Below, in pieces: positions 4,990 to 43,501 of a stretch of DNA of 64,000 nt. Position numbers and translations under genes: made by a program. Below the pieces are notes generated by a model. It was not told the DNA's origin, did not search any database, and saw only the letters and a program-made list of their open reading frames with translations. The DNA is taken from IMG/VR virus record IMGVR_UViG_3300031224_000010; one strand, given 5' to 3'. Origin of the DNA: an uncultured virus (IMG/VR IMGVR_UViG_3300031224_000010) (taxonomy: Duplodnaviria; Heunggongvirae; Uroviricota; Caudoviricetes). Each line of letters begins with the position of its first letter. Positions within the stretch are counted from its first letter, which is position 1.

Positions 4990-6089
4990 GCTGCGGTCCT
5001 CTTCGGTTGGCAGGGGGTGACTTTCGTTAGTTGCCCACGGAAGGCAATGCCGGTTTCGACGGCCAACGACTTCCGCAGGTTGTAGGTGTTGGCGTGCTGG
5101 CAAATGCCCAGGTAGCTGTTCATTCTTGAGGCCCAGGCTTCTGGGTTGTCGTGTCTTTCGGCGCTGTGCGCTACGGCTTTCATGGCATTTGTGCTGCGCC
5201 GGCGAACGTACCGGCGGTGCGGCAGCATCACGTAGCCGCAGAAATTAATACCGCGATAGACGCTGTTTCTTTGCGTTTTATTGGGGTGGAAATGTACATC
5301 CAGCTGCGTCAACGCGAACGTTTTCATGGCCTCAAACGCGTCGTTCAGTTCTGCAGGCGTTTTACCGATCAGAACCACGTCATCGACATAACGCCCGTAC
5401 CAGCGCACGCCCAGGTCGCGCTTTACGAACTGGTCCATAGAGTCGAGATAAACGTTGGCGAAAAACTGGCTCGATAGATTCCCGATCGGAAGCCCTTTGT
5501 TACCACTATTGAAAAGGCTTTTGTGGTGCGGCACGTGGCGGAATTTCCACGCCGGACTGTTCACGATCGGGCGCTGGGTTGGGTCGTGAAACAACACTTG
5601 AGCGGTCAGATTGAGAGTCTCATCGTCGTCTATTCGCTTGCGCAGCAAATTGAACAGAATGTCTTTATCGATGCTGACAAAGAAATTCGCCAAATCGGCT
5701 TGCAGAAAGCAGGCGGGGTGCTGCCAGTTTTCAGTCGCCTTGCGCATGAATCCGTGGATCCGCTCAACCCCTTTCAATGAGCCACGCCCGGGGATGCAGG
5801 CATAGCTGTCGTGAATAAACCGGCGATAGAAGCGGTCAGACACCCGGTTGTAGATGATGTGGTGCACCACCCTGTCGCGGAACTGAGCCGCCCACACTTC
5901 GCGCCATTTTGGGTAACTGACCACAAATGCGATTGACCGGCCAATGCGATAGGCGCCAGCGTTAAGGTCGCGCATTAACTTCATGAGATTGCGCTCCAGT
6001 CGCAGCTCGAAATCGCACTGTGACAGCGCATTGCGCTTATTTCTGCGGCAATCGTAATACGCTTGAAAGACCTCTTCAACAGTAAACAC
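4986..6089 (-). CDS. DGR reverse transcriptase (copy 1)
   Basis: RDRVVHH, GLPIGNLSSQ (DGR-type IGxxxSQ), YGRYVDD; 367 aa with no intron maturase/endonuclease extension; adjacent TR and avd. Confidence 0.96.
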   Translation of the reverse strand: MFTVEEVFQAYYDCRRNKRNALSQCDFELRLERNLMKLMRDLNAGAYRIGRSIAFVVSYPKWREVWAAQFRDRVVHHIIYNRVSDRFYRRFIHDSYACIPGRGSLKGVERIHGFMRKATENWQHPACFLQADLANFFVSIDKDILFNLLRKRIDDDETLNLTAQVLFHDPTQRPIVNSPAWKFRHVPHHKSLFNSGNKGLPIGNLSSQFFANVYLDSMDQFVKRDLGVRWYGRYVDDVVLIGKTPAELNDAFEAMKTFALTQLDVHFHPNKTQRNSVYRGINFCGYVMLPHRRYVRRRSTNAMKAVAHSAERHDNPEAWASRMNSYLGICQHANTYNLRKSLAVETGIAFRGQLTKVTPCQPKRTAA

Positions 6090-6095
6090 TATGAT

Positions 6096-6230
6096 CTCCT
6101 GACGGCACGCACCCGGTTGCTGTTCGTCTTGTTGTTCCGGTTCTGGTTGCCATTGTTGAAGTTCTGGTTCCAGGCGTTGCTCGCATCGTTCTCCGTCGAT
6201 GACCAGTAGTTGCTGGGCTCGAAAGCGTCG
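6096..6230 (-). repeat. DGR template repeat (TR), copy 1
   Basis: 135 bp aligning gaplessly to VR 6792-6926; 13 AAY codons; 15 mismatches all at TR A. Confidence 0.97.
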
Positions 6231-6401
6231 TTAAGCTGCTCACTGTCACGTCGCACCGCGGGATATTAAAACCGCCGTGAAACTGGCTTTCGCCTTTTCG
6301 CGGGGCCCGGGCAAGCCGAACCCTGCGGGAGCAGTCCGAGATTATTGGCTCGCCGCGCAAAGCCTTGGCCCTGCGCGTTCTGGCCGTGTTTACCTGAAAA
6401 G
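6231..6401 (-). ncRNA. Putative structured 5' leader of the DGR template RNA
   Basis: 171-bp avd-TR intergenic; hairpin 6354-6377 and GGC-GAAA-GCC tetraloop 6285-6294. Confidence 0.45.
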
Positions 6402-6743
6402 TCACTTACTCGCCTTTTCCCAGCCGTAGGCCTGACGGCCGATAGCGTCCGTTCGCTCAACCAGCTGGCCGTGCTGTTTTTTACTGATTAACGCAAGGTC
6501 GCAGCAAAGCCGGATGGTCATTTCAACCACTTGAACGGTCTCCAAAATGGCTGAGATTATCGGCCGGCGGCCATCTCGCGCCGCGTTGGCGCGGTACACG
6601 TTGATCACGATGTCCAGGCAATCGGATCTCAACCGCTCGCCCAGGGATATCTTCAGATCACGCGGGAAATTCCGCGTCATCTGGGTGATCAATTTCATGA
6701 GCTCAAATGTGTCCCGATAAATCGGCAATTCTTTCGCCTTCAT
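6402..6743 (-). CDS. avd: Accessory variability determinant (Avd-like four-helix bundle), copy 1
   Basis: 113 aa; LPIY..., NFPRDLKISLGERLR, IGRQAYGW motifs; between VR and TR. Confidence 0.88.
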   Translation of the reverse strand: MKAKELPIYRDTFELMKLITQMTRNFPRDLKISLGERLRSDCLDIVINVYRANAARDGRRPIISAILETVQVVEMTIRLCCDLALISKKQHGQLVERTDAIGRQAYGWEKASK

Positions 6744-6778
6744 AGCGAAACACCCCAAATAAAAGTGGAAAGAAAAGT

Positions 6779-8806
6779 TTAAAGTGCAATCCTCCTGACG
6801 GCACGCACCCGGTTGCTGACCGTCTTGCTGGTCCGGTACTGGAAGCCAATGTTGAAGCGCTGGAACCAGGCGAGGCTCGCATCGTTCTCCGTCGATGACC
6901 AGTAGTGGCTGGGCTCGAAAGCGTCGGCGGACGCGCCTTTGAAGCTTTCACGGTCGGTTTGCGCTGGGTCTCCTGCGGTGTAGCCAGTTTGAGTGGGCCG
7001 CGAATTTGCGTTAGTACCGAAAGTGGCGCCATCACCGCCGAAACCCGTAGTTTGGCGAGCGGAGGTGTTGTTTGCCGTGGTGTCGGGCTTGAAGTTTCGA
7101 TAGAGGATTTCAAGCTCGTCGCGGCTTGGCAGGTACCAGTCGGTGTGGCCATTCAGACCCTGGGCCGCGTTGCAGTTGTCTTCAATCCACTTAAAAGCCG
7201 GAAACTGAGACAAGCTATTCAGCGCAAGAATGGCGTTGTGATTTGTGCGGCCGTCGGCCAGGGTCATCGGCGGCACGCCTGCAGTGCCGGTCACAGCCGT
7301 GTTAGCGGTGCGCCAGCTCATTGTTCCGTCGCCCATCTTAACGCTGTCGCCACCGCCGTCCGACACAACAAGGCCGTACGTCTGACCGTCGTAATCTGAG
7401 ACAATTTTGCCCGCGACATAACCGCCGCCGTAGGGTGCGCCGATCTCGGTATCAAAATCAGGCACAAACGATGCAGACGTTGTGATGCTGCTGCCGGCGC
7501 CGCGGGCGGAATCGCCATAGACCGCGCCGTGGTACTGCGGCTCAATAGTGTAAGTCTGGCCTGGCTGCAGGATATCTGCGGGCACCGTGACGCTGGTGAG
7601 CTGCGTTTCAGAGCGGATCACGTCGTAAACAATGCCGCCGGTGCTGTCGCGAATACGCAGTGACGTGGCCACGTGCTCGTCTGTGCCGCTGATTACGTTA
7701 AATGCGGACAGCTCGATAACCGGCTGCTCAGGTATGTCGGTTGCGCCAGCTGCCGGGCTTGTAACGCTCGGCGTGTCGATGTAGGTGTCAGCGGTACCGA
7801 AACGGGTGCGGGGTGAGCGCTGCGCCCACTCGCCTTCCACGTTTTCGTCCTGGTACTGCCATTCGTGATCTGAGCCCACGTCTATTGGCGATGCAACCGT
7901 GTGAGCTTCGATCGGATTTTCGTCAAGCGGCGTCTCGTCGGCTTCGTAGACTGGCACGTCTTCGTTCAGTCTGAAGATGTAAAACCGGCGGAGATTTTGC
8001 GGCACGCCGTACAGGGGGTAATAAGGCGAACCGACCAACTCTGGCGTTGCTGTTACACCGGTGGCGGCGGCGGCCGGTGAGATGTTTTCGGGGCGGCGGG
8101 TTACGCCGATCGGCAAGGCTGTGATGATCGCGACGCGGGAAATAACGCCCATCACGCGCAAGCGCGTGACGTTGCTGGGGATGTTCCAGCTGCCGTCTGC
8201 CCGTGCTGTCAGGTTCTGCCACGCACTGCCGGTCCAATACCGTGCTGCCAGGTTTGAGCCCTGCACGTGCAAATAAGCGCCGCGCTCCATGTCTGTCAGC
8301 TCTGGCGTTGCGTACTCTGCCGGAGCAAGGCGGCCAAGGGTTGAGCCCACAGCGACGGTGCTGGTGAGCGAGCCGTACAGCGTGATGCGCTTATCCGAGA
8401 GCACTTGACGAACCCGAACGCTTTGGGTGTTTCCAGAGTCAACAATGAAATAGTGCTGGCCAGGCTGAATGCCGGCAGTGCTTACCAGGTCGATGCTGTC
8501 ATCGCCGCCCACAGCGGATTCGATCACAAACTCAGGCACTTGTTCTGCACGCTCAACAAAAACGCGTTGCGCGCCGTATTGAACCAGGGCGTCAAGCCGA
8601 TCTGACAGGTTGATAGGATCGCTGCCCAGAATGTCTTCAACCTGGCCTTGGGTTTGGGCGATTTTATCGCGCAGCCAGAAGTCGTTTTCGATCAAAGCCA
8701 AGTATTGCGGATTCCAGGAATCCGGGTGCGCCGGATCTGCGGTTGTCATCGCGCGCAGCTGCTCACTAAATGCCGGGGGGCTGTTAGGGGTTAAATATTC
8801 GGCCAT
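6779..8806 (-). CDS. DGR target: tail fibre/receptor-binding protein with Ig/FN3-like repeats and C-terminal DUF1566 (CLec-fold) domain
   Basis: DWYLPSRDEL...YWSSTE...VRAVRR; VR at the C-terminus; at the tail-fibre position after gpI. Confidence 0.88.
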   Translation of the reverse strand: MAEYLTPNSPPAFSEQLRAMTTADPAHPDSWNPQYLALIENDFWLRDKIAQTQGQVEDILGSDPINLSDRLDALVQYGAQRVFVERAEQVPEFVIESAVGGDDSIDLVSTAGIQPGQHYFIVDSGNTQSVRVRQVLSDKRITLYGSLTSTVAVGSTLGRLAPAEYATPELTDMERGAYLHVQGSNLAARYWTGSAWQNLTARADGSWNIPSNVTRLRVMGVISRVAIITALPIGVTRRPENISPAAAATGVTATPELVGSPYYPLYGVPQNLRRFYIFRLNEDVPVYEADETPLDENPIEAHTVASPIDVGSDHEWQYQDENVEGEWAQRSPRTRFGTADTYIDTPSVTSPAAGATDIPEQPVIELSAFNVISGTDEHVATSLRIRDSTGGIVYDVIRSETQLTSVTVPADILQPGQTYTIEPQYHGAVYGDSARGAGSSITTSASFVPDFDTEIGAPYGGGYVAGKIVSDYDGQTYGLVVSDGGGDSVKMGDGTMSWRTANTAVTGTAGVPPMTLADGRTNHNAILALNSLSQFPAFKWIEDNCNAAQGLNGHTDWYLPSRDELEILYRNFKPDTTANNTSARQTTGFGGDGATFGTNANSRPTQTGYTAGDPAQTDRESFKGASADAFEPSHYWSSTENDASLAWFQRFNIGFQYRTSKTVSNRVRAVRRIAL
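6792..6926 (-). repeat. DGR variable repeat (VR), copy 1
   Basis: Encodes DAFEPSHYWSSTENDASLAWFQRFNIGFQYRTSKTVSNRVRAVR vs TR DAFEPSNYWSSTENDASNAWNQNFNNGNQNRNNKTNSNRVRAVR. Confidence 0.97.
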
Positions 8807-8817
8807 GAATTACTCCG

Positions 8818-9174
8818 TCAAAATTGCAGGGTGAGTGTTGTGTCAATGTCGGTACCGGGTGCGAGCTCTAACGCTCCGAACGCGCGGCGGCCAGCAAGGT
8901 CACCATCACTGTCGATGATGGCCATTTCGCGGATGGCCAGGCCCGCAACGTCAGCGCCCCGAAGCACATCAGAAACAGCCAAAACGGTGCCGCCGGCGGT
9001 TGCTGATACCACTACTTGTCGGTGCACTTCAGCGCCCAGGGCTGCGTCCTCGTCCGTTGCCGGGCTGCCGTCAGTGCCCCAGGCCGTGTGCGTAATGCGA
9101 GGGGGCGCCGTGGCGGTCGCTACCGCCAAAGCCACTTTTGCCCGGAACTGTTTGTTTGCGGGTATCACGCTCAT
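8818..9174 (-). CDS. Small tail/baseplate protein resembling the gpH N-terminal (tail-collar) domain
   Basis: ITHTAWGTDG...IREMAIIDSDGDL; homologue 43519-43878. Confidence 0.65.
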   Translation of the reverse strand: MSVIPANKQFRAKVALAVATATAPPRITHTAWGTDGSPATDEDAALGAEVHRQVVVSATAGGTVLAVSDVLRGADVAGLAIREMAIIDSDGDLAGRRAFGALELAPGTDIDTTLTLQF

Positions 9175-10259
9175 AGACGTATCTCCGTTTTAATGCGCCG
9201 ATCACGCATTACCGCGTGGGCAGTGGTGCCGATGCTGTTAAGGATTTTGGTGGCGCCCAGGGTTCGGACACCGCTTAGCATTGGGATTCGCGTCTGCTCC
9301 AGGATACTTATGGACAGCGGCCAGCTGCCGTCTATATCACGGTGGCCATCAACGGTTTCGTTTAGCTGCCAGGTGCCATCCACTCGATCTGTTTCAAATT
9401 CGCCAAGGGTCCATAGGTTTCTATTTTCTGAGCGCATACCCATTTCTTTACGCTGGGTAATGCGAATTTCAGCGGAACCCCAGCCCTGGTCTAACGGCTG
9501 GCCAATTGCTTGCTGGCCGGTTAATTGCCAACCGCCATCAATGCGGTCGGCCGCGGTCAAAAGGCGGGGCTTATATTCGCCGGTGAGCCCCCAGCACCCG
9601 GTGAGCAGGCGGGCACTGTGTATCTGCTCGCCTGTGCAGCCGGTGAACAGTTGCCGCACAGTGATCTGAGGGGCAGACAGCATGATTCGGGCGTCAAACT
9701 CGGCAGCGTAGCGGTATATCAGAGCGATCAATTCCGAGCGAACCGGGGCCGCGGCCTCCACTCGCTTGCGCAGCTGGCCTTGGCTGCGGGCGGTCAATGG
9801 CGCTTCGTTTATGTTGAATGCGAGTGCGTACTGGGCCCAGTGTGTTGTGACGATTCGCGGGCCGCCCTGCACTTCCAAGCTGCGCCCATCCAGGCTCCAG
9901 GTGCCATCCAATAGCAGTCCGCCGGCGGCGATCCACTGGTTGCGCTGGGCCGTGTGCTCCAGCAGCTCAACATCGCTAAAACCAAGCACCTCTAATGCGC
10001 GGCGCACGGCCCGAACCGTGCCTCGCTTGCGGCGGATGGGTATAGCGGCATCGATGGCGTTCCGCTTCTGCTGCTCAGTCCATTGGCTGTCCCAGGCGTC
10101 AACGCCAACGGCCCAGGCCAGCCAAGGCAATATGTTTTCGGGGGCCGAAGCGCCGTTCCACACGGTGTGCAAGGGTGCATTTGCCCGTTCGATCAGCGCG
10201 TCCGCTTGCTCGATTCGGCGCTCCAGCGGCGTGGCGTTTGGTGGCAAAAGGCTAGTCAT
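9171..10259 (-). CDS. Tail protein I (P2 gpI-like) with C-terminal DGxWxL repeats
   Basis: SLLPPNATPLER...LPWLAWAVGVDAW...RKRGT. Confidence 0.9.
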   Translation of the reverse strand: MTSLLPPNATPLERRIEQADALIERANAPLHTVWNGASAPENILPWLAWAVGVDAWDSQWTEQQKRNAIDAAIPIRRKRGTVRAVRRALEVLGFSDVELLEHTAQRNQWIAAGGLLLDGTWSLDGRSLEVQGGPRIVTTHWAQYALAFNINEAPLTARSQGQLRKRVEAAAPVRSELIALIYRYAAEFDARIMLSAPQITVRQLFTGCTGEQIHSARLLTGCWGLTGEYKPRLLTAADRIDGGWQLTGQQAIGQPLDQGWGSAEIRITQRKEMGMRSENRNLWTLGEFETDRVDGTWQLNETVDGHRDIDGSWPLSISILEQTRIPMLSGVRTLGATKILNSIGTTAHAVMRDRRIKTEIRL

Positions 10260-11160
10260 TGATGATTACTTGGATGCCGGTGCAGTAAGGGGACTCACTG
10301 GGCTCGCCGCCCAGATCCGCAACAGGTGAATGCAGCGTGACACGCTCAACACCAGGCGCGTAGAGCCGTGACTCCAGGGCACCGGCGACGATTGTTTCGC
10401 CCAGGGCGTGGCGCTCATCGACATAAATTCTTGCCGCCGCGATTGCCTGCTCACGCACGACCGCCGAATCGGGCCCGCCGCGTAACTCGATGGTGGCGGA
10501 AACGCTGAATCTCAAAACCGATGCACTGGCAACCAGAACCGTGTCGGTGAGCGGGCGAGCGTCATCCGCGCTGAGTGCTTGTTCAACGATGTTGACCAGC
10601 TCGGTTGATGCTTCGCCATCGCCCTCTCGTGACAGAACGTATGCCTGCACTAGCCCAGCAAGCGGGCGAACCACTTCTGCATCTTTGATGCGCGGGTCTG
10701 CGCGTAGCGCGAAATAACGATAGGCGTTACGGGATCCGGCTGTGCTGAAGGCGTCATGGGCCAGCAATATCCGGCGCAAATAATCGGTGTCGGACTCATC
10801 AACCCGGACCACTGGCGGCGTTGCGTCGGGTTGGGCTGGCGTGATGACTAGCCGCGGCGTCAAGTAATACGTTACGCCAATGTGATCAAGCTCAGGGCCG
10901 GCAGCGTAGGCGAGCATGAGCGATCGGGCGCGCTCGTTTTGCATCTGCCGAAGCATTAGCTCTCGGTAGGCTGACTCTTGAAGAAATTTGACCAGGGGTT
11001 CGCTTTCGAGCTGTAGCGTTTCCACAAGCTGTTCTCGTTCCGTCTCGGGTGTTAGCTCAATGAGTCGTTCTTTACGCTCAACAAGCAACGACTCGAACGT
11101 CATTGAGTCAATCAAGTTAGGCGCTGGCAGCCTAGAAAGGTCGATCGCGTTATTGCTCAT
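10252..11160 (-). CDS. Baseplate protein (P2 gpJ-like)
   Basis: IDLSRLPAP...ESEPLVKFL...STAGS...PYCT. Confidence 0.93.
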   Translation of the reverse strand: MSNNAIDLSRLPAPNLIDSMTFESLLVERKERLIELTPETEREQLVETLQLESEPLVKFLQESAYRELMLRQMQNERARSLMLAYAAGPELDHIGVTYYLTPRLVITPAQPDATPPVVRVDESDTDYLRRILLAHDAFSTAGSRNAYRYFALRADPRIKDAEVVRPLAGLVQAYVLSREGDGEASTELVNIVEQALSADDARPLTDTVLVASASVLRFSVSATIELRGGPDSAVVREQAIAAARIYVDERHALGETIVAGALESRLYAPGVERVTLHSPVADLGGEPSESPYCTGIQVIIND

Positions 11161-11516
11161 TCGCCTGCGCCTATGTTTACGATGATTGAAAGGCGCTGAT
11201 CGCCGCCGCTTTCGCCTGCAGCGATTGTGGCTTCAATCTCAACTGAAAATAAGCCGGGGGAGTTTGTGCTGGCTATCGATACAACTCTGCTTAGCCGAAC
11301 CCGGGGCTCCCACTGCTGAATCGCGATAGCGATGGCGGCGTAGGCCCTTAGTTGGGTGCCACCGTTTAGCGGCTGGTCGATAAGCTCGGGAAGAAGTGAT
11401 CCATACCCACGGCGCATAACACGGCTGCCGATGGGCGTTGCCAGAATATCCGCGATGCTCTGTTGTATATGTTGGACCCCAGATAATTTTCGTCCGGTTT
11501 TTGCGCTCATGCCCAT
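11157..11516 (-). CDS. Baseplate wedge protein (P2 gpW/gp25-like)
   Basis: HIQQSIADILATPIGSRVMRRGYGS...WEPR. Confidence 0.93.
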   Translation of the reverse strand: MGMSAKTGRKLSGVQHIQQSIADILATPIGSRVMRRGYGSLLPELIDQPLNGGTQLRAYAAIAIAIQQWEPRVRLSRVVSIASTNSPGLFSVEIEATIAAGESGGDQRLSIIVNIGAGE

Positions 11517-11713
11517 TAGTCCACCTTGTATTGGCCGGCTGATGAACCGTCTGTTACAGGTACTTCCGCGTTGCTCTGAACTTCATCAACAACAGCGTTG
11601 GCAATAGCGGTTGCCATGCGATCGACCCAACTGTGCTTGCCCGATGCGGTGGCACCTTGCGCTTTCATTTCTGCAATGATGCGGCTTTTAAGCTGGCCTT
11701 TGCTCAGTGCCAT
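11516..11713 (-). CDS. Hypothetical 65-aa baseplate-region protein
   Basis: Conserved homologue at 46208-46405; tight spacing with neighbours. Confidence 0.75.
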   Translation of the reverse strand: MALSKGQLKSRIIAEMKAQGATASGKHSWVDRMATAIANAVVDEVQSNAEVPVTDGSSAGQYKVD

Positions 11714-11715
11714 GG

Positions 11716-12276
11716 CTATTTACCTGCCGTTACTGTGCTGGATCCATCGCCGTGCGGGTTACCGGTGAAGTGGCAGATGTGGCCCGTTGTTACAACGGGG
11801 TTGCCATCGTTGTGGTGGATTTTCTCGGCATTCACTTTGCACACGCCGCCCACTGCTGTGGTTGCATTGCCGCCAATGTTGATGGTGGCGTTTCCGGCTA
11901 CGTTGATATTCACTTTCCCAGGGAATGTAGCGACCAGTTCTTTCTTCACGTGGTCGTAAGTGATCGTGGCGCCATCCGGATAGACCCGCTTGTGCTCATC
12001 AGCGCTTTTAGACGGTGCGTTCTGGGTGTAAAGGCCGGTGATGATGATGGCCTGGGCCAAGTCGCCAGCGGGTGACAGCAAAATAACCTGTTCGCCGACT
12101 GTCGGCGGATTCCATTCCAAAGTGCTGCCTGTTCTTGCGGATATCCACGGCTGCCACCCGGTGACGTTATCGCCGGCTTTTACTTTCGCCCGTGCGTGGT
12201 CAACGTCCACTTCGGCGATGGTGCCGATGCGAACGATGTTGTTAATCAGGCGGATTGCTTCGGTGGTTTTGTCCAT
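11716..12276 (-). CDS. Baseplate spike (P2 gpV-like)
   Basis: IVRIGTIAEVD...WNPPTVGEQV...YPDGATITYD. Confidence 0.93.
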   Translation of the reverse strand: MDKTTEAIRLINNIVRIGTIAEVDVDHARAKVKAGDNVTGWQPWISARTGSTLEWNPPTVGEQVILLSPAGDLAQAIIITGLYTQNAPSKSADEHKRVYPDGATITYDHVKKELVATFPGKVNINVAGNATINIGGNATTAVGGVCKVNAEKIHHNDGNPVVTTGHICHFTGNPHGDGSSTVTAGK

Positions 12277-12321
12277 GCGGACAGTTTGTGCTGGGGCAAT
12301 GCGCAACAGTAGGCGCGGCAG

Positions 12322-12343
12322 TTGTCAGCCGGTAATGCGACAA
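12322..12343. promoter_or_regulatory. Putative late-promoter box upstream of gpV
   Basis: TTGT-N14-ACAA (one base longer than the other five). Confidence 0.5.
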
Positions 12344-12350
12344 CTTCAAA

Positions 12351-12803
12351 TCAAAGCGTGACGTGTTCCAGGATCTTCTCGGCGATCATGTCCAGGTCCT
12401 GACGGCTGGTGCCCAGCAGTGGGCGAGATGGGTAATCGTATTCCGGGCCATTCTTGTCGACTTTCGCCCGTAGCCCGTAATGGTGGATTCGGGCAATACG
12501 CCCTACTGCACCACTGAACAGCAGCCCGGCGGCGTCTGGCGAGGTATTAATCCGCAGAAACTTGGACGTGCGAATTTTGGTGAACATCGCTTTTTTCCGT
12601 ATGCCTCCCGACTTTCCGCCAATACGGCTTTTCCGTGGCTCCCAGCTTTCACCGTTCGGGCCTTCCTGCTTTTTCATCCGCTCCTGGTTAGATTTGCGCA
12701 GCTCCCGGGCAATGGATTTCATCAGCTTTCGGCGTTCAGCCGGTTGCATTTTTCTTAGCAGGGGCTCGGCCCAGCCAGACAGCGCATCGATGTCGTCAGT
12801 CAT
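12351..12803 (-). CDS. Tail completion/virion morphogenesis protein (P2 gpS-like)
   Basis: WEPRK, IARIHHYG, YPSRPLLG. Confidence 0.9.
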   Translation of the reverse strand: MTDDIDALSGWAEPLLRKMQPAERRKLMKSIARELRKSNQERMKKQEGPNGESWEPRKSRIGGKSGGIRKKAMFTKIRTSKFLRINTSPDAAGLLFSGAVGRIARIHHYGLRAKVDKNGPEYDYPSRPLLGTSRQDLDMIAEKILEHVTL

Positions 12804-13257
12804 CGAAATCTACGTCCTCTTTAAAGTGATGCAGATCCATTATTATTTCCCATTCGGTGGCGTCCATTTCCATAGGCGCTTCGGGCAGCACGTGTTCCAC
12901 GTCTAGGCCCGCTTCGGTGGCCTTTACGATTACTCGCTCGGTTACGTTAACGGTGATCGCTATGTCATAGCTGTTGTTGTTCAGCAGCTCTGCTTCAAAG
13001 CGAATGGTGTTCATGGGGTCATGGCCCGGCTCGCGCACTTGCAGCCAGGACAGTATGGGCAGGACCAGGTCATCCACGTTGCCGGCGTAGTCGGTCACAA
13101 TGATCTGGATTGGGATGGCGTAGGCGTGGCTGAGGTTTTGCCCGGGCCAGAACTCTATGCTGCCGTCTTCGATAAATGTCAGCAGCTTGTCCGGGTTGCG
13201 CTTCAGGCCGGGAACGTTAGCCAGTAAGTGGCCGCGCAGGTCTTCAAGCTTTTTCAT
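12796..13257 (-). CDS. Tail completion protein (P2 gpR-like)
   Basis: LKRNPDKLLTFIEDG...VTERVIV. Confidence 0.9.
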   Translation of the reverse strand: MKKLEDLRGHLLANVPGLKRNPDKLLTFIEDGSIEFWPGQNLSHAYAIPIQIIVTDYAGNVDDLVLPILSWLQVREPGHDPMNTIRFEAELLNNNSYDIAITVNVTERVIVKATEAGLDVEHVLPEAPMEMDATEWEIIMDLHHFKEDVDFDD

Positions 13258-13949: not shown

Positions 13950-13959
13950 GGGCGCTGCC

Positions 13960-23215: not shown

Positions 23216-23216
23216 G

Positions 23217-25731: not shown

Positions 25732-25792
25732 AATGTTCTCCCTATATACCGCGTGTTCGTTTTTGGTGTTGCAGTGCTGCATGGCAATCAAT

Positions 25793-29423: not shown

Positions 29424-29436
29424 TTGTAGCTCCGGG

Positions 29437-30544: not shown

Positions 30545-30745
30545 TCAAGCGGATTTCTGGTGCTTATAGAGTTCCAGACCAGCCAGGAAGAACACTCTGG
30601 CCTGGGCCGCCATAGAACGGTTTTCGGTGGTGGCGATGTTGATTAGCTGGTCGCGCTCCTCTTGAAGGAGGCGAAGGCCAACCGGCTTTTCAACAACAAC
30701 ACCATCGGGAGCGCGATTGCGGATGGGTTTATTGGTTTGGCGCAT
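30545..30745 (-). CDS. Cro/Cox-position regulator, Arc/RHH-like
   Basis: Divergent from cI; VGLRL...ENRSMAAQAR. Confidence 0.65.
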   Translation of the reverse strand: MRQTNKPIRNRAPDGVVVEKPVGLRLLQEERDQLINIATTENRSMAAQARVFFLAGLELYKHQKSA

Positions 30746-30845
30746 GGTGTATCCTCTGTGTGTTATTTCGTTACACAGAATGATAGACCCCAATCCACAA
30801 GCCTGTAAACAATTTGGTTATTGTATTTTGCTATTGGTATTCAAT

Positions 30846-31508
30846 ATGGGTGACAAACTTTTAAATAGTGAATTAATGATTCACAGAATGAGAGAAGCGA
30901 TCGGCGCCAAAAACGATGGTCAGGTTGGTGAATTCGTCGGCGCATCTAAACAGGCGGTTTATAACTGGAAAAATCGGGGATCTATCCCGATCGAGTACTG
31001 CGTTGGGTTCTGCATGAAAACGTCCAGAAGTATGGATTGGCTGATTTTTGGAGAGACAGCCGAGGGCGCAACAGAAATACCGCCGGGCATGGATAACGAG
31101 TATTCAGAAATTCCGCTTTACGACATAGAAGTCAGCGCCGGCCACGGCTCCTTTTTCGATCACGAACGGATAAGCAGCCGCCTGAAGTTTCGCAACGACT
31201 GGCTTACCCGCGAGGGCTTGTCTAAAAGCACCCTGGTCGGCATTCTCGTGGCCGGCGACTCTATGGATGGCACACTAGCTGATGGTGACATGGTGTTGAT
31301 TGACCGCTCCCGCACTAAGCCAGATGGCGTTTTCGCTATTCGAATTGGTGATGGCCTGCGGATAAAGCGCTTGCAGAAGATGACGGATGGATCGCTTCGG
31401 GTGTCCAGCGATAACGATATGTATCGCGAAGAAATCATCCATCCGGAGAACATGGGCCAGGTGGAGATTGTGGGGCAGTGCTATTGGCGCAGTGGTAAGG
31501 TTTTTTAA
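30846..31508 (+). CDS. cI: CI-like repressor (HTH + S24 peptidase)
   Basis: GASKQAVYNWKNRGSIP; SAGHG, GDSM and IKRL autopeptidase motifs. Confidence 0.9.
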   Translation: MGDKLLNSELMIHRMREAIGAKNDGQVGEFVGASKQAVYNWKNRGSIPIEYCVGFCMKTSRSMDWLIFGETAEGATEIPPGMDNEYSEIPLYDIEVSAGHGSFFDHERISSRLKFRNDWLTREGLSKSTLVGILVAGDSMDGTLADGDMVLIDRSRTKPDGVFAIRIGDGLRIKRLQKMTDGSLRVSSDNDMYREEIIHPENMGQVEIVGQCYWRSGKVF

Positions 31509-34069: not shown

Positions 34070-34074
34070 AGCGG

Positions 34075-36967: not shown

Positions 36968-36979
36968 GGGGTTAGCTCC

Positions 36980-37489: not shown

Positions 37490-37501
37490 TGCTTGTGCTC
37501 C

Positions 37502-39016
37502 TTATGCGTTTACGCGGCTGGCGAAGTCCACCAGGTACCGGTCTGTGATGCGCTGGCGCAACAGCAGGTTTTCCAGCGGCGGCACTGGGGTGTAGTCGTA
37601 GTCGATGTACAGTTTGCCGGCCTTTAGCGTGTCTTTGGTGTTGGCTACGTCATCGAACCATGCGCTGGCATCGATAATCAGGCCCAGGGCTTTCAGCTCG
37701 CGGAACTTGGCGTTGATGCCTTCAATGATGTCTTTCGCCAGCGACGGGTGCATGGGCTTGTCGACGGCGAACATGTGCGCCTCTGCGATTGTGTCAGCCA
37801 GGATTTGCGCGGTGCGGGTGTAGTTCTCGAACTGGAACAGCGGGTCGGCACTGCAGGTGCGTGAGCCCCAAAAGCGGAAGCCGTCGCGCTGGATCAGAGT
37901 GGTTACTTCATTGGCGTTCAGCAGCCCTGCGTCGGTGTTGGGGTCTTGCAGATCCCAGTGCACATCTTTGTTGATGCCGGTTACGCCGTTCACGGCCACG
38001 TTAGACAGGGTTTTATGCCAGCCCACCTGTTGGTCTATCTTCGCGCGCAGGCCCATGGCACGCGCTACAGCGAAGGCGGTGGAAGTGGATGCGGTGTTTA
38101 CGTCGAACGCGACGAAATCTGGCCAGATCAGCATCAGTTCGCGGGCGCCATAGCTGTTGCGATACAAGATGGCGTCTTCGATGACTTCGCAGCCGTGGCA
38201 GCTGGCGTACACGAACGCGCGCAACTTCTGGGCCATGGCGACGGCTTCAGCGGTTACGGCTGGCGTGTCCAGGCCTGGCGCACCGATGATGCGGGGCTTT
38301 ACGCCTAGGTTCTGCTCAGCTGCCAATAGTGCTTTCAGCCCGGTTTTCTTGCCCTGGGCGGTGACGGTGCCGATGACGTTGGCGGTGGTTTCGCTTTCAG
38401 TGGTGCCCTGCTCTACCCGAACCACAACAATGGGCGTGTTGGCCTGGTCGGCAATGGCATCCAGTGCCGCCGGCAGTGTGCCGGTGGTGCCTGCATTGCC
38501 GATTGCTTCAAAGACGTTCGTTACCAAAACGGGGGTATTCAGCGGGAAGGCTTCGTTTTCGCCGCCGGTGAGTTTTTCCCAGCCGGCGGCGCTCACCAGG
38601 CCGGTACCATCATTGCCGGAATCCATCGCAACACTAACGAGGGCTGCCGCTTCGGTGCTGGCCTCGATGGCCGTCATGACTTCTGAGGCAGTGCTGTCAA
38701 GACTGCCGTCGATATCGGTGGCCAGGTTTACGGTGATGTCTTTGCCGCTGACGCTGACAGACAGCGCTGCAGAGTTGGTGCCTGGGTCTACATAGCTAAC
38801 CCGAATACCGTTACCTGCGCTGCCGGTTTCCACTGCGGTGTAAACGATGTTGGCGTTATTGGCGATAGTGCGCAGCGTGACTTCAGCAGCAAGGCCCGTG
38901 AGCGCTTCCGGAGCTGTAGCCACTAGGCCGATGATGGCTGTTGCGACTGTTCGAATGGTGCGAGTGCCTTCGTTAATTTCGAGCACTCGTACACCGTGGT
39001 GATATTGATCGAGCAT
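37502..39016 (-). CDS. Tail sheath protein (gpFI-like)
   Basis: 504 aa from ATG 39016; homologue of 2825-4339. Confidence 0.95.
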   Translation of the reverse strand: MLDQYHHGVRVLEINEGTRTIRTVATAIIGLVATAPEALTGLAAEVTLRTIANNANIVYTAVETGSAGNGIRVSYVDPGTNSAALSVSVSGKDITVNLATDIDGSLDSTASEVMTAIEASTEAAALVSVAMDSGNDGTGLVSAAGWEKLTGGENEAFPLNTPVLVTNVFEAIGNAGTTGTLPAALDAIADQANTPIVVVRVEQGTTESETTANVIGTVTAQGKKTGLKALLAAEQNLGVKPRIIGAPGLDTPAVTAEAVAMAQKLRAFVYASCHGCEVIEDAILYRNSYGARELMLIWPDFVAFDVNTASTSTAFAVARAMGLRAKIDQQVGWHKTLSNVAVNGVTGINKDVHWDLQDPNTDAGLLNANEVTTLIQRDGFRFWGSRTCSADPLFQFENYTRTAQILADTIAEAHMFAVDKPMHPSLAKDIIEGINAKFRELKALGLIIDASAWFDDVANTKDTLKAGKLYIDYDYTPVPPLENLLLRQRITDRYLVDFASRVNA

Positions 39017-39086
39017 GACGCCTCCTGGTGTTTTGCGGATATACGCACATGATGATCGCAGTAGGGTTGATTGCCATGCACAGGAT

Positions 39087-39107
39087 TTGTCTGTTTTGTC
39101 CAAACAA
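39087..39107. promoter_or_regulatory. Putative late-promoter box upstream of sheath gene
   Basis: TTGT-N13-ACAA. Confidence 0.6.
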
Positions 39108-39108
39108 A

Positions 39109-39137
39109 TTAAAGGCCGCTGAAGCGGCGGCCTTTAA
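39109..39137 (-). terminator. Terminator hairpin ending the V-to-DGR operon
   Basis: TTAAAGGCCGC / GCGGCCTTTAA 11-bp stem, T-rich tail on minus strand. Confidence 0.7.
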
Positions 39138-39165
39138 AGGGTTTTAGATAAATTCTCAGCTTACC

Positions 39166-39687
39166 TTAGGCCTCTATTCCAGCACCCTCTTCAAACATCG
39201 CGTCAAGGTCTTCATCGTTAATGCCAAGGGCGATCGCCATTGCTTTAAGCATCGGTGATGTGCGGCGAAATTCACCCGCATCATTCCACGCGTCAACAGT
39301 CAGTGCGTCGGTTTCCGGGTCGTTCATAATCTGCTCAATGGCCTCTCTGTAGCCGTATCGGCGTAGCACAGCGCGGGCCTGAAAGCGAGACAGCACCATG
39401 CCTGCCCGGCGCTTCTCGTTAGCGGCGATCTCAAGCTCTACGCGCCAGGCGTCAACGCCGGCCAGCAGGCTGTCGTGCTCGGCTTTGTCGATCAACGTCA
39501 TGCCTGGCGCCAGGGGCTCGCTTGCGGGCATGGTGCCGATTATGAGTGCCGGTACCAGGCGCCGATCCACTGCGTTGACTTTGATTTGCGGGCTGGGCAG
39601 CTTAGGGCCGTGGCGCAATTTTGCTTCGTTGGCTGGGCGTCCGTCTTGAGCGTCGACGTAATACGCGGTGATGTATTTGTTGCTCAT
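39166..39687 (-). CDS. Hypothetical 173-aa protein coupled to DGR RT
   Basis: ATGA overlap with RT stop; homologue of 4468-4989. Confidence 0.75.
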   Translation of the reverse strand: MSNKYITAYYVDAQDGRPANEAKLRHGPKLPSPQIKVNAVDRRLVPALIIGTMPASEPLAPGMTLIDKAEHDSLLAGVDAWRVELEIAANEKRRAGMVLSRFQARAVLRRYGYREAIEQIMNDPETDALTVDAWNDAGEFRRTSPMLKAMAIALGINDEDLDAMFEEGAGIEA

Positions 39688-40787
39688 GCTGCGATCCTCG
39701 TGCGGTTTGGGGTTTTGACTTTCGTTAGCTGGGCGCGAAAGGATGCGCCGGTCTCGATGGCTAATTGCTTGCGCAGATTGTAGGTGTTGGCGTGCTGGCA
39801 AATGCCCAGGTAGCTGTTCATTCTTGAGGCCCAGGCTTCTGGGTTGTCGTGTCTTTCGGCGCTGTGCGCTACGGCTTTCATGGCATTTGTGCTGCGCCGG
39901 CGAACGTACCGGCGGTGCGGCAGCATCACGTAGCCGCAGAAATTAATACCGCGATAGACGCTGTTTCTTTGCGTTTTATTGGGGTGGAAATGTACATCCA
40001 GCTGCGTCAACGCGAACGTTTTCATGGCCTCAAACGCGTCGTTCAGTTCTGCAGGCGTTTTACCGATCAGAACCACGTCATCGACATAACGCCCGTACCA
40101 GCGCACGCCCAGGTCGCGCTTTACGAACTGGTCCATAGAGTCGAGATAAACGTTGGCGAAAAACTGGCTCGATAGATTCCCGATCGGAAGCCCTTTGTTA
40201 CCACTATTGAAAAGGCTTTTGTGGTGCGGCACGTGGCGGAATTTCCACGCCGGACTGTTCACGATCGGGCGCTGGGTTGGGTCGTGAAACAACACTTGAG
40301 CGGTCAGATTGAGAGTCTCATCGTCGTCTATTCGCTTGCGCAGCAAATTGAACAGAATGTCTTTATCGATGCTGACAAAGAAATTCGCCAAATCGGCTTG
40401 CAGAAAGCAGGCGGGGTGCTGCCAGTTTTCAGTCGCCTTGCGCATGAATCCGTGGATCCGCTCAACCCCTTTCAATGAGCCACGCCCGGGGATGCAGGCA
40501 TAGCTGTCGTGAATAAACCGGCGATAGAAGCGGTCAGACACCCGGTTGTAGATGATGTGGTGCACCACCCTGTCGCGGAACTGAGCCGCCCACACTTCGC
40601 GCCATTTTGGGTAACTGACCACAAATGCGATTGACCGGCCAATGCGATAGGCGCCAGCGTTAAGGTCGCGCATTAACTTCATGAGATTGCGCTCCAGTCG
40701 CAGCTCGAAATCGCACTGTGACAGCGCATTGCGCTTATTTCTGCGGCAATCGTAATACGCTTGAAAGACCTCTTCAACAGTAAACAC
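39684..40787 (-). CDS. DGR reverse transcriptase (copy 2)
   Basis: Identical to copy 1 except the last ~27 aa. Confidence 0.96.
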   Translation of the reverse strand: MFTVEEVFQAYYDCRRNKRNALSQCDFELRLERNLMKLMRDLNAGAYRIGRSIAFVVSYPKWREVWAAQFRDRVVHHIIYNRVSDRFYRRFIHDSYACIPGRGSLKGVERIHGFMRKATENWQHPACFLQADLANFFVSIDKDILFNLLRKRIDDDETLNLTAQVLFHDPTQRPIVNSPAWKFRHVPHHKSLFNSGNKGLPIGNLSSQFFANVYLDSMDQFVKRDLGVRWYGRYVDDVVLIGKTPAELNDAFEAMKTFALTQLDVHFHPNKTQRNSVYRGINFCGYVMLPHRRYVRRRSTNAMKAVAHSAERHDNPEAWASRMNSYLGICQHANTYNLRKQLAIETGASFRAQLTKVKTPNRTRIAA

Positions 40788-40793
40788 TATGAT

Positions 40794-40928
40794 CTCCTGA
40801 CGGCACGCACCCGGTTGCTGTTCGTCTTGTTGTTCCGGTTCTGGTTGCCATTGTTGAAGTTCTGGTTCCAGGCGTTGCTCGCATCGTTCTCCGTCGATGA
40901 CCAGTAGTTGCTGGGCTCGAAAGCGTCG
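40794..40928 (-). repeat. DGR template repeat (TR), copy 2
   Basis: Same sequence as 6096-6230. Confidence 0.97.
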
Positions 40929-41099
40929 TTAAGCTGCTCACTGTCACGTCGCACCGCGGGATATTAAAACCGCCGTGAAACTGGCTTTCGCCTTTTCGCG
41001 GGGCCCGGGCAAGCCGAACCCTGCGGGAGCAGTCCGAGATTATTGGCTCGCCGCGCAAAGCCTTGGCCCTGCGCGTTCTGGCCGTGTTTACCTGAAAAG

Positions 41100-41441
41100 T
41101 CACTTACTCGCCTTTTCCCAGCCGTAGGCCTGACGGCCGATAGCGTCCGTTCGCTCAACCAGCTGGCCGTGCTGTTTTTTACTGATTAACGCAAGGTCGC
41201 AGCAAAGCCGGATGGTCATTTCAACCACTTGAACGGTCTCCAAAATGGCTGAGATTATCGGCCGGCGGCCATCTCGCGCCGCGTTGGCGCGGTACACGTT
41301 GATCACGATGTCCAGGCAATCGGATCTCAACCGCTCGCCCAGGGATATCTTCAGATCACGCGGGAAATTCCGCGTCATCTGGGTGATCAATTTCATGAGC
41401 TCAAATGTGTCCCGATAAATCGGCAATTCTTTCGCCTTCAT
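41100..41441 (-). CDS. avd: Avd-like accessory protein, copy 2
   Basis: Identical translation to copy 1. Confidence 0.88.
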   Translation of the reverse strand: MKAKELPIYRDTFELMKLITQMTRNFPRDLKISLGERLRSDCLDIVINVYRANAARDGRRPIISAILETVQVVEMTIRLCCDLALISKKQHGQLVERTDAIGRQAYGWEKASK

Positions 41442-41476
41442 AGCGAAACACCCCAAATAAAAGTGGAAAGAAAAGT

Positions 41477-43501
41477 TTAAAGTGCAATCCTCCTGACGGC
41501 ACGCACCCGGTTGCTGACCGTCTTGCTGGTCCGGTACTGGAAGCCAATGTTGAAGCGCTGGAACCAGGCGAGGCTCGCATCGTTCTCCGTCGATGACCAG
41601 TAGTGGCTGGGCTCGAAAGCGTCGGCGGACGCGCCTTTGAAGCTTTCACGGTCGGTTTGCGCTGGGTCTCCTGCGGTGTAGCCAGTTTGAGTGGGCCGCG
41701 AATTTGCGTTAGTACCGAAAGTGGCGCCATCACCGCCGAAACCCGTAGTTTGGCGAGCGGAGGTGTTGTTTGCCGTGGTGTCGGGCTTGAAGTTTCGATA
41801 GAGGATTTCAAGCTCGTCGCGGCTTGGCAGGTACCAGTCGGTGTGGCCATTCAGACCCTGGGCCGCGTTGCAGTTGTCTTCAATCCACTTAAAAGCCGGA
41901 AACTGAGACAAGCTATTCAGCGCAAGAATGGCGTTGTGATTTGTGCGGCCGTCGGCCAGGGTCATCGGCGGCACGCCTGCAGTGCCGGTCACAGCCGTGT
42001 TAGCGGTGCGCCAGCTCATTGTTCCGTCGCCCATCTTAACGCTGTCGCCACCGCCGTCCGACACAACAAGGCCGTACGTCTGACCGTCGTAATCTGAGAC
42101 AATTTTGCCCGCGACATAACCGCCGCCGTAGGGTGCGCCGATCTCGGTATCAAAATCAGGCACAAACGATGCAGACGTTGTGATGCTGCTGCCGGCGCCG
42201 CGGGCGGAATCGCCATAGACCGCGCCGTGGTACTGCGGCTCAATAGTGTAAGTCTGGCCTGGCTGCAGGATATCTGCGGGCACCGTGACGCTGGTGAGCT
42301 GCGTTTCAGAGCGGATCACGTCGTAAACAATGCCGCCGGTGCTGTCGCGAATACGCAGTGACGTGGCCACGTGCTCGTCTGTGCCGCTGATTACGTTAAA
42401 TGCGGACAGCTCGATAACCGGCTGCTCAGGTATGTCGGTTGCGCCAGCTGCCGGGCTTGTAACGCTCGGCGTGTCGATGTAGGTGTCAGCGGTACCGAAA
42501 CGGGTGCGGGGTGAGCGCTGCGCCCACTCGCCTTCCACGTTTTCGTCCTGGTACTGCCATTCGTGATCTGAGCCCACGTCTATTGGCGATGCAACCGTGT
42601 GAGCTTCGATCGGATTTTCGTCAAGCGGCGTCTCGTCGGCTTCGTAGACTGGCACGTCTTCGTTCAGTCTGAAGATGTAAAACCGGCGGAGATTTTGCGG
42701 CACGCCGTACAGGGGGTAATAAGGCGAACCGACCAACTCTGGCGTTGCTGTTACACCGGTGGCGGCGGCGGCCGGTGAGATGTTTTCGGGGCGGCGGGTT
42801 ACGCCGATCGGCAAGGCTGTGATGATCGCGACGCGGGAAATAACGCCCATCACGCGCAAGCGCGTGACGTTGCTGGGGATGTTCCAGCTGCCGTCTGCCC
42901 GTGCTGTCAGGTTCTGCCACGCACTGCCGGTCCAATACCGTGCTGCCAGGTTTGAGCCCTGCACGTGCAAATAAGCGCCGCGCTCCATGTCTGTCAGCTC
43001 TGGCGTTGCGTACTCTGCCGGAGCAAGGCGGCCAAGGGTTGAGCCCACAGCGACGGTGCTGGTGAGCGAGCCGTACAGCGTGATGCGCTTATCCGAGAGC
43101 ACTTGACGAACCCGAACGCTTTGGGTGTTTCCAGAGTCAACAATGAAATAGTGCTGGCCAGGCTGAATGCCGGCAGTGCTTACCAGGTCGATGCTGTCAT
43201 CGCCGCCCACAGCGGATTCGATCACAAACTCAGGCACTTGTTCTGCACGCTCAACAAAAACGCGTTGCGCGCCGTATTGAACCAGGGCGTCAAGCCGATC
43301 TGACAGGTTGACAGGGTCACTGCCCAGAATGTCTTCCACCTGGTTCTGGGTTTGCAGGATCAGGGTGCGCAGCCAGTGGTCATTGGCCAGCAGATCGGTG
43401 AACTGCGGGTTCCAGGTGTCCGGATGTGCCGGGTCGGTGGTCTGAATGGCGCGCAGCTCTTCGCTGAACTGCGGGTCGGTAATGGTAATTTGCTGTGTCA
43501 T
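41477..43501 (-). CDS. DGR target tail fibre/receptor-binding protein, copy 2
   Basis: Differs from copy 1 only in the first ~64 aa. Confidence 0.88.
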   Translation of the reverse strand: MTQQITITDPQFSEELRAIQTTDPAHPDTWNPQFTDLLANDHWLRTLILQTQNQVEDILGSDPVNLSDRLDALVQYGAQRVFVERAEQVPEFVIESAVGGDDSIDLVSTAGIQPGQHYFIVDSGNTQSVRVRQVLSDKRITLYGSLTSTVAVGSTLGRLAPAEYATPELTDMERGAYLHVQGSNLAARYWTGSAWQNLTARADGSWNIPSNVTRLRVMGVISRVAIITALPIGVTRRPENISPAAAATGVTATPELVGSPYYPLYGVPQNLRRFYIFRLNEDVPVYEADETPLDENPIEAHTVASPIDVGSDHEWQYQDENVEGEWAQRSPRTRFGTADTYIDTPSVTSPAAGATDIPEQPVIELSAFNVISGTDEHVATSLRIRDSTGGIVYDVIRSETQLTSVTVPADILQPGQTYTIEPQYHGAVYGDSARGAGSSITTSASFVPDFDTEIGAPYGGGYVAGKIVSDYDGQTYGLVVSDGGGDSVKMGDGTMSWRTANTAVTGTAGVPPMTLADGRTNHNAILALNSLSQFPAFKWIEDNCNAAQGLNGHTDWYLPSRDELEILYRNFKPDTTANNTSARQTTGFGGDGATFGTNANSRPTQTGYTAGDPAQTDRESFKGASADAFEPSHYWSSTENDASLAWFQRFNIGFQYRTSKTVSNRVRAVRRIAL
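41490..41624 (-). repeat. DGR variable repeat (VR), copy 2
   Basis: Same sequence as 6792-6926. Confidence 0.97.

Follow-up and report, generated by a model that had tools for sequence, protein, structure and literature searches.

Two phiCTX/P2-like phages sharing a tail-fibre and retroelement cassette in one 64-kb contig, most likely joined by the assembler

Background

The retroelement of Bordetella phage BPP-1 is the prototype of the diversity-generating retroelements (DGRs). The element described here resembles its mtd-avd-TR-brt locus in several respects: a target gene with a C-terminal variable repeat (VR), avd, the template repeat (TR) and the reverse transcriptase (RT) follow each other in that order, mismatches are found at TR adenines only (here 15/15), the target is a receptor-binding protein of the tail fibre, and the VR varies between samples whereas its flanks are constant. 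Unlike BPP-1, the carrier is a phiCTX/P2-like myovirus, and the protein diversified is a fibre of 675 aa that has an Lcl_C domain. The features of BPP-1 used for this comparison come from general background and from two papers (PMC5758913, PMC3091744), not from an alignment.

The gene order around the element is that of phiCTX/P2-like phages (Peduoviridae), i.e. Q,P / O,N,M,L / lysis / R,S,V,W,J,I and fibre / FI,FII,E,T,U,D, in genomes of 34-35 kb; what differs is a DGR placed between the fibre and sheath genes. In phiCTX the integrase and a tRNA-like attP adjoin cos and portal, as is the case here. P2-like phages are a classical example of tail-fibre exchange, and the locus shares with such module exchange (phage mosaicism) a host-range module that is identical in otherwise diverged genomes. 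In the present case, both break points are resolved to the base, and the distal fibre moves together with the whole diversifier while the fibre N-terminus stays.

A further body of work concerns repeats in assembly. Chen et al. (2020, PMC7111523) name perfect repeats that exceed the span of read pairs as a cause of misassembly, and characterize chimeric joins by very unequal coverage across the two sides; the paper on Phables (PMC10563150) deals with mosaic phage genomes that have unitigs in common. Our contig is similar to repeat-induced chimeras in its long perfect repeat, duplicated hallmark genes, size of about twice a genome and unequal coverage (PMC7111523, PMC10563150). It is unlike a self-concatemer in that two different genomes are joined via one shared segment.

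Composition of the window

The window (the whole stretch of 64,000 nucleotides that was analyzed) contains two phiCTX/P2-like phages. Positions 1-5079 and 43312-64000 belong to one of them (phage Y) and 8614-39777 to the second (phage X), with an identical block (R) at both joints; the order is Y(tail)-R-X(whole genome)-R-Y(rest). We assign the parts in this way because contig G002 links the outer parts of Y end to end, contig L003 shows the native order of Y, and GC3 is higher in the Y-assigned copy for all 21 gene pairs outside R (21/21, tail genes among them). These three lines agree with the first-pass annotation, which had proposed two diverged phages with a common DGR block; its impression by eye of a lower GC in X is confirmed as well, including for the tail genes that it had called inconclusive.

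The two copies of R (5080-8613 and 39778-43311, both on the minus strand) match over 3,534 bp at an offset of 34,698, without a single mismatch or N, and form the sole exact run of at least 30 nt at that offset. Directly beyond R the identity at this offset is 71/100 on the left and 69/100 on the right, and other homologous stretches are 72-87% identical. The earlier claim of an identical 3.5-kb block with diverged flanks is thus exact in its coordinates, with the flanks falling to about 70% at once.

The unique part of X (8614-39777, 31,164 bp) and one copy of R together measure 34,698 bp. X is about 34.7 kb in size, and Y about 33.7 kb as found here or about 35 kb with its integrase; proteins of X and Y are 51-85% identical. 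Based on PHROGs, the P2 order is found twice (Q, P, O, N, M, L, R, S, V, W, J, FI, FII, E, T, U, D). The set of X comprises baseplate, tail completion, lysis, L/M/N/O, terminase, portal, integrase, early genes, primase (26712-29600), cI-like repressor (30717-31508), D, U, T, E, FII and FI, together with an ORF without assigned function. One full gene set with an attP-like junction had been claimed for the interval between the repeats, and this is what we find, the attP-like site being at 21835-21880.

The left part of Y (1-5079, minus strand), identified through PHROGs and its matches to L003 and G002, holds the tail genes: a partial tape measure T (2-1900), gene E (1998-2288), tube FII (2302-2811), sheath FI (2825-4339) and an ORF without assigned function (4468-4989), the start of which overlaps the RT stop; all lie on the minus strand. 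The right part (43312-64000) contains baseplate, lysis, head, terminase, portal (55361-56347), early genes and primase (59772-62480), and no integrase was found in it with PHROGs.

The repeated block

R consists of a textbook DGR and the distal part of a tail fibre. It contains most of the RT, the TR, avd, the VR and the fibre minus its N-terminal 64 aa (coordinates below are those of the first copy, all on the minus strand). The RT (4986-6089, 367 aa) matches phrog_1423 (E 2.6e-98) and Pfam RVT_1 (1.8e-14; 54.3 bits, cut-off 29.6), and about the last 31 of its codons lie outside R. With rising coordinates it is followed by the 135-nt TR (6096-6230), which has 43 adenines, and by the gene for the 118-aa Avd accessory protein (6402-6758; phrog_3206 7.3e-26; Pfam bAvd 1.2e-10, 42.2 bits, cut-off 40). 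The VR (6792-6926) lies at the 3' end of the fibre gene, 13 nt from VR end to stop codon. Over 135 nt, TR and VR differ at 15 positions, all of them TR adenines; the two are equal over the final ~27 nt and divergent beyond. The fibre itself, which is the DGR target (6779-8806, 675 aa; phrog_4245), ends in a lectin-like Lcl_C domain (PF07603, 2.1e-10), while its N-terminal 64 aa are outside R and differ by phage.

The edges of R fall within the 3' end of the RT gene and the 5' end of the fibre gene, away from TR and VR, and we therefore reject a DGR-specific (cDNA-mediated) join.

Attachment site and integrase

The attP core of X (46 nt, 21835-21880) adjoins an integrase of 486 aa (21965-23425, minus strand; phrog_1 7.1e-14) that has no Pfam match at 1e-3. 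By its sequence the core looks like a tRNA 3' end; ARAGORN called no tRNA genes in the window, and none was found in contigs L003, L007 and L011. An identical core is present in G002, which represents an integrase-bearing form of phage Y. Comparison with G002 reveals a deletion joint in the Y of the window at 57141/57142, where about 1.33 kb is missing: the attP core and the 415-aa integrase save for about 13 codons. Loose ends of the integrase-bearing form at 57141/57142 occur for both sides in public runs X2 and X3, and for the integrase side only in run X1. The loss of attP and integrase would be a coincidence if the contig is a product of assembly, and would be sensible if X carries Y. Positions 1-1304 of G002 were considered as host DNA beside the attachment site and discarded, as the region is an IS200/IS605 element and therefore uninformative on integration.

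Origin of the contig

Most likely, the contig is a path taken by the assembler and not a real fused genome. We consider it probable that X and Y are separate genomes which recently exchanged a host-range/DGR cassette, and that the assembler walked through that repeat. Two temperate phiCTX/P2-like phages would then co-reside in a salt-lake community, and a 3.5-kb cassette (the receptor-binding part of the fibre with VR, Avd, TR and nearly the whole DGR RT) would have been swapped between them recently by ordinary recombination. The exchange points would lie in the N-terminal part of the fibre and in the last ~31 RT codons, and each phage would retain its own attachment end while gaining the receptor-binding end and diversifier of the other; by analogy with P2 gpH, the N-terminal part is presumed to attach to the baseplate. 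In a short-read assembly graph, two circles with one near-identical 3.5-kb segment would form a figure-of-eight, of which the contig would be one walk (Y-left, R, all of X, R, Y-right) with the collapsed R edge output twice. SPAdes-type assemblers would traverse a simple loop this way. Both the identical copies and the single genome between them would then be properties of the walk rather than of a molecule. We infer this behaviour of the assembler, as well as the physical separation of X and Y in the source sample. A join across the repeat was among the alternatives already listed for this DNA, and it fits the evidence from contigs, depth and alleles given below.

The main rival is a real cointegrate, in which circular X crossed over with Y, or Y with X, by homologous recombination inside the shared cassette to yield a dimer of about 68.4 kb; we regard this as unlikely. 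It would have one attP/int pair (that of X) with the own pair lost by this Y, the cassette would serve as a portable homology region, and reciprocal X/Y hybrids would be set free by cos-to-cos packaging. A single crossover in R predicts precisely this layout, and there is a single attP in the window, X having both attP and integrase and the Y of the window neither. X and Y also co-occur: at least 92% of the words of the stretch from Y-left through R to X-right are present in all 20 listed runs (which were selected by that share). On the other hand, at about double the length of X or Y alone, the 68-kb dimer would be too large for packaging in P2-like heads. The cointegrate model and the model of separate genomes yield an identical k-mer graph.

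Independent contigs speak against the cointegrate, since a hybrid pairing of flanks across R is seen in none of the six that touch R (L003, L004, L005, L010, L011 and L012). One of them, L003, has the native pairing Yleft-R-Yright: it is 100% identical to the window over 3486-5079 (1594 nt) and 43312-46153 (2842 nt), and its R segment has 22 mismatches to that of the window, 19 of them in the VR. The other five end at or inside the edges of R. L004 starts 5 nt before R and is 99.9% identical to 43312-46397, L005 ends within R just beyond the VR, and L012, with a length of exactly 3,534 bp, coincides in extent with R. L010 (window 8495-12522) and L011 enter from X-right and end 119 and 121 nt inside R, respectively; L011 presents a third genomic background, with X-type baseplate genes next to the common R. 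For the X-left flank, a string from 39700-39740 retrieved 0 contigs in the viral-contig scan, and hence the Xleft-R junction has no independent contig; its presence elsewhere is inferred from the lone L012 with the same edges and from Logan contigs ending 30 nt inside R. A string internal to R retrieved one contig only in the metagenome scan. G002 bridges 57142-64000 (99.8% identity) to 1-6978 via about 4.4 kb of DNA from outside the window, and is about 100% identical to Y-left apart from two mosaic patches. G001 corresponds to 9887-34827, with 8 SNPs in the first 11.6 kb.

Depths were obtained as mean k-mer depths of Logan contigs in four public runs (X1 to X4, of which X1 is a possible source run of the window); these are coarse values that may include other mosaic relatives (the background of L011, a depth rise at 46027). 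For the X-left contig (38534-39807) the depth is 90.9 in X1, 8.39 in X2 and 297.6 in X4, with a bin value of 55 in X3; for the Y-right contig (43313-46056; in X1 43282-46056) it is 135.7, 184.3, 460.7 and 238.5 in X1 to X4. The X:Y ratio at the joint of the second R copy is consequently 0.67, 0.05, 0.12 and 1.25, a spread of about 27-fold. The depth of R comes near to X+Y, with 203-223 against 227 in X1, 175-178 against 193 in X2, 429-439 against 516 in X3 and 441-510 against 536 in X4. Inner versus outer coverage, suggested as a check in the first-pass annotation, is thus unequal (0.05-1.25 over the four runs), and the 1:1 ratio expected of partners in a cointegrate is absent in 4/4 runs (by coarse means, with a bin value for X3), with X2 and X3 deviating most. 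The depths in X1 and X4 leave room for a large cointegrate fraction. Taken as such, ratios of 0.67 and 1.25 would permit a cointegrate in most genomes of these two runs.

The alleles of R point in the same direction as the contigs. At sites 7207, 8102 and 8185, L003, L004 and L012 have C, G and G, while both window copies have G, T and T. L003 and L004 tie the C, G, G alleles to Y-right; the Y-rich runs X2 and X3 carry these alleles, and X4, which is richest in X, carries those of the window. One crossover between such R alleles would leave two unlike copies. The two window copies are alike at all three sites and do not show reciprocal parental alleles, assuming that the source sample had the same alleles. 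A similar picture emerges from the VR, for which there are four alleles among the window, L003, L004 and L012 (L012 being the same as L005) within flanks that are 100% or 99.9% identical; the VRs of L003 and L012 differ from the window at 19-20 sites. In X1 the window VR allele has a depth of ~69-74 against ~223 for R, about one third, so that the VR is heterogeneous in that run, but both window copies have the same sequence. Overall, depths far from 1:1, hybrid pairings in 0/6 contigs and three Y-linked SNPs in neither window copy count against the fusion into one molecule that had been the leading idea for this DNA.

It is rather improbable that some members of the population really have this array, in the form of an X::Y dimer that arose through crossover in the DGR/fibre cassette, with a Y devoid of attP and integrase being carried and integrated by X. 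If so, the two cos sites in the dimer would let packaging release reciprocal X/Y hybrids, and a laterally spread DGR cassette would let phages with only 51-85% protein identity reshuffle whole head and tail modules. A cointegrate would represent a novel route to the fusion of phage genomes, driven by DGR cassettes.

Less credible still is a double lysogen with X and Y in tandem at a single tRNA attB, the DGR block having been homogenized between the two prophages by gene conversion. The 46-nt attP core common to X and the integrase-bearing Y implies the same attB, which makes tandem integration plausible, and gene conversion could account for the identity of R. However, each R would be expected to have the flanks of its own phage, whereas one X and one Y flank are observed per copy; there is no host DNA and no attL or attR within the window, the cos-attP-int region of X is uninterrupted, and the unequal depths of X and Y speak against a fixed linkage. 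The simple form of this alternative, which had also been listed before, is contradicted by the flank assignment (G002, L003, GC3) and is rejected.

Significance and relatives

With X and Y read as separate genomes, the locus would be a clean, base-resolved case in which a distal fibre and its diversifier moved between two diverged co-resident phages. The crossovers would be placed such that each phage kept its own N-terminal, presumably baseplate-attaching, end of the fibre, and the cassette apparently also occurs in the neighbourhood of a third phage background. For virus catalogues the contig suggests caution: a long shared repeat can yield a contig of about twice the genome size with two sets of hallmark genes. 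Here such a chimera can be recognized by the unequal depth of the unique segments and by alleles that are output twice.

The relatives of both phages are distant. No phage in the collection exceeds 48% identity in the RT, and a genome scan with the RT gave 12 loci, all at 35% identity or less and none in a P2-like context among those examined. The large terminase is 57-64% identical to that of the nearest cultured phages, with Bacillus phage vB_BpuM-ZY1 (63.7%) and Halomonas phage vB_HboP_4908 (61.5%) as the best records. The latter value and the salt-lake label allow no more than a guess at a host among the Halomonadaceae. When 1-12000 was compared with cultured phages by megablast, the only matches, of 60-80% in 28 records, were to the sheath and tube genes.

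Two phages around one shared block

A base-by-base comparison of the contig at an offset of 34,698 yields a single exact run, in which 5080-8613 equals 39778-43311 over 3,534 bp with 0 mismatches and 0 Ns, precisely where the first-pass annotation had placed two identical 3.5-kb blocks. Immediately beyond this block (R) identity drops, with 71/100 positions matching in the left flank and 69/100 in the right flank, and the remaining homologous stretches between the window halves are 72-87% identical. PHROG searches recover two phiCTX/P2-like gene sets, both full and in the same order; as proposed earlier, one of them lies between the R copies (phage X, 8614-39777). The predicted attP-like junction is also present in X: a 46-nt core resembling a tRNA 3' end (21835-21880) adjoins the integrase (486 aa; 21965-23425). 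No tRNA gene was found within the window, and the PHROG search found no integrase between portal and early genes in 43312-64000.

Independent public records assign the flanks. G001 (24,941 bp) corresponds to 9887-34827 with 8 SNPs confined to the opening 11.6 kb and a closing stretch that matches exactly, and thus represents X from another assembly. G002 (21,542 bp) matches 57142-64000 at 99.8%, continues through ~4.4 kb of off-window sequence and then matches 1-6978 (~100% identical apart from one mosaic patch in T and another in FI); both window ends therefore belong to one phage, Y (1-5079 and 43312-64000). L003 (7,970 bp) joins 1,594 nt of Y-left (100%) to R and 2,842 nt of Y-right (100%), its copy of R having 22 mismatches to the window, 19 of them in the variable repeat. 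The lower GC noticed by eye in X genes holds for GC3 in 21/21 non-R gene pairs (protein identity 51-85%), the five tail genes included. Together these results confirm the layout Y(tail)-R-X-R-Y(rest). X plus R measures 34,698 bp, and Y plus R ~33.7 kb (24,223 + ~4,382 + 5,079).

The carrier phages are distant members of the P2/phiCTX group, their large terminase sharing no more than 64% identity with those of cultured phages. The portal-to-primase stretch is ~2.5 kb longer in X than in Y. For four consecutive X genes at 23978-26001 (255, 132, 76 and 214 aa), PHROGs gave no hit at 1e-5 and Y has no equivalent.

The DGR cassette

The block contains a complete diversity-generating retroelement (DGR) on the minus strand: a 675-aa tail fibre with a C-terminal Lcl_C domain (6779-8806), the variable repeat (VR; 6792-6926, 135 nt, 13 nt short of the fibre gene end), the accessory protein Avd (6402-6758), the template repeat (TR; 6096-6230) and a 367-aa reverse transcriptase (RT; 4986-6089), at most 48% identical to those of cultured phages. 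TR/VR mismatches fall at TR adenines in 15/15 cases and the VR sequence varies from sample to sample. Of the five listed defining features of DGRs, the four tested (all but the IMH) were found. The right edge of R splits the fibre gene after codon 64 and the left edge splits the RT ~31 codons upstream of its stop, so that the RT tail and the N-terminal end of the fibre (presumably the baseplate-attaching part, by analogy with P2 gpH) are flank DNA.

In G002 the TR departs from the remaining four copies by three T-to-A changes (plus strand; window 6117, 6118 and 6123), which is unusual because a TR normally stays invariant. Between DGR and sheath gene, outside R, lies a minus-strand ORF of ~173 aa (phrog_6034, unknown function; 4468-4989 and 39166-39687), whose start overlaps the RT stop in ATGA; a longer ORF call containing it shows 66% identity between X and Y. 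Its product could serve in fibre assembly or be linked to the DGR.

Molecule or assembly path

A cointegrate and two circles sharing R yield the same graph for words shorter than 3.5 kb, and consequently only linkage, depth and alleles discriminate between them. Six independent contigs touch R. None (0/6) has a hybrid flank pairing, and one (L003) has the native Y pairing. L012 consists of R and nothing else (exactly 3,534 bp; 23 mismatches, 20 in VR), L010 and L011 enter from X-right and end 119 and 121 nt into R, L004 starts 5 nt ahead of the R edge and continues into Y-right, and L005 terminates within R. Assemblies of other samples thus also contain R, with the same edges, as a repeat that they did not resolve. 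This shows that the shared cassette is real and that comparable data fail to span it.

At least 92% of sampled words of 3001-13000 occur in each of 20 salt-lake metagenome runs. Four of these public runs (X1-X4) were compared over 38500-58499 as Logan contigs, using contig-mean k-mer depth, a coarse measure that may include other relatives. Depths of the X-left contig (38534-39807) and the Y-right contig (43313-46056; from 43282 in X1) were 90.9 and 135.7 in X1 (X:Y 0.67), 8.39 and 184.3 in X2 (0.05), 55 (bin value) and 460.7 in X3 (0.12), and 297.6 and 238.5 in X4 (1.25). R pieces reached 203-223, 175-178, 429-439 and 441-510, against X+Y sums of 227, 193, 516 and 536, respectively. There seems to be one R per phage, but X and Y lack a fixed 1:1 ratio; in X2 at most ~5% of Y could be joined to X. 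In X1-X3 a common loose end joins at 46027 and depth rises rightward (in X2 from 184 to 261-326); another relative seems to share the Y head region, without the Y baseplate.

Alleles at 7207, 8102 and 8185 are C, G, G in L003, L004 and L012 (linked to Y-right in the first two), whereas the window reads G, T, T in both of its copies. Among the runs, the Y-rich X2 and X3 carry C, G, G, the X-rich X4 agrees with the window, and X1 is mixed. A single crossover between such R alleles would leave differing copies, while one collapsed edge written twice leaves identical ones. The same VR also stands in both contig copies, although in X1 its depth is ~69-74, against ~223 for R.

The physical cointegrate favoured by the first-pass annotation is therefore probably not real, and its existence in a minority of the population appears unlikely, given the missing hybrid pairings, the varying depth ratio and the identical alleles. 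The layout is nonetheless what one crossover in R would produce, and X and Y occur together in all 20 listed runs (which were picked by that criterion). Also in its favour, the Y of the window lacks ~1.33 kb at 57141|57142 relative to G002 (L007 1980-3332), comprising the attP core, which resembles a tRNA, together with a 415-aa integrase gene except for ~13 codons, so that the only attP in the window is that of X; such a Y cannot integrate alone. In X1-X3 the deletion joint has loose ends that carry sequence of the integrase-bearing form (in X1 on one side only), and an X4 contig spans the joint by 30 nt, one below the 31-nt bridging rule. A plain tandem of X and Y with gene conversion deserves hardly any credence, as the layout and the flank assignment by G002, L003 and GC3 contradict it.

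The remaining suggestion, an assembler joining two genomes across the repeat, is the most likely reading and fits the breaks at R, the depths, the alleles and the VR written twice. Assemblers of the SPAdes type generally go round a loop this simple a single time, and the result is exactly A-R-loop-R-B. Misassembly at perfect repeats exceeding the read-pair span, with unequal coverage betraying chimeric joins, is described by Chen et al. 2020 (PMC7111523), and mosaic phage genomes with common unitigs are described in the Phables paper (PMC10563150).

A short, imperfect repeat (GCAACTCC / GCCACTCC) marks the deletion joint. In G002 (L007 1-1304) an IS200/IS605 element inside which the contig terminates, with a Y1 transposase (Pfam 9.5e-42) and the start of an OrfB/TnpB-like ORF, replaces the portal gene end and following region of the window.

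Origin of the shared cassette

In the favoured mechanism, X and Y, whose identical attP core makes a common host probable, recombined recently, and distal fibre, Avd, TR and RT moved as a single unit. The DGR thereafter diversifies VR separately in each lineage, and the array in the contig arises from assembly. Because the edges of R lie away from TR and VR, the join is not chemically DGR-mediated. Lateral transfer of near-identical DGRs has been published (PMC5758913), and the RT of a P2-like Burkholderia phage was judged non-DGR by its authors (PMC3091744). In listings and selected passages of the literature on P2-like phage DGRs and DGR cassette transfer, we found no DGR cassette acting as a cointegration site. 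Our finding is an instance of known phage mosaicism that involves a DGR host-range module.

L011 (1-10188; equivalent to window 8493-11016) represents a third phage background running into the R edge. Compared with X, its J-like tail protein is 100% and its baseplate J protein 93% identical (aa), W 57% and V ~29%, and nothing beyond matches; the fibre/baseplate-tip module thus appears common to more than X and Y. The G002 patches at window 246-745 (tape-measure gene) and 3742-4241 (sheath gene) are 64-86% identical to the window's Y, against ~100% elsewhere, and are still less X-like (58-72%), which implies a further donor.
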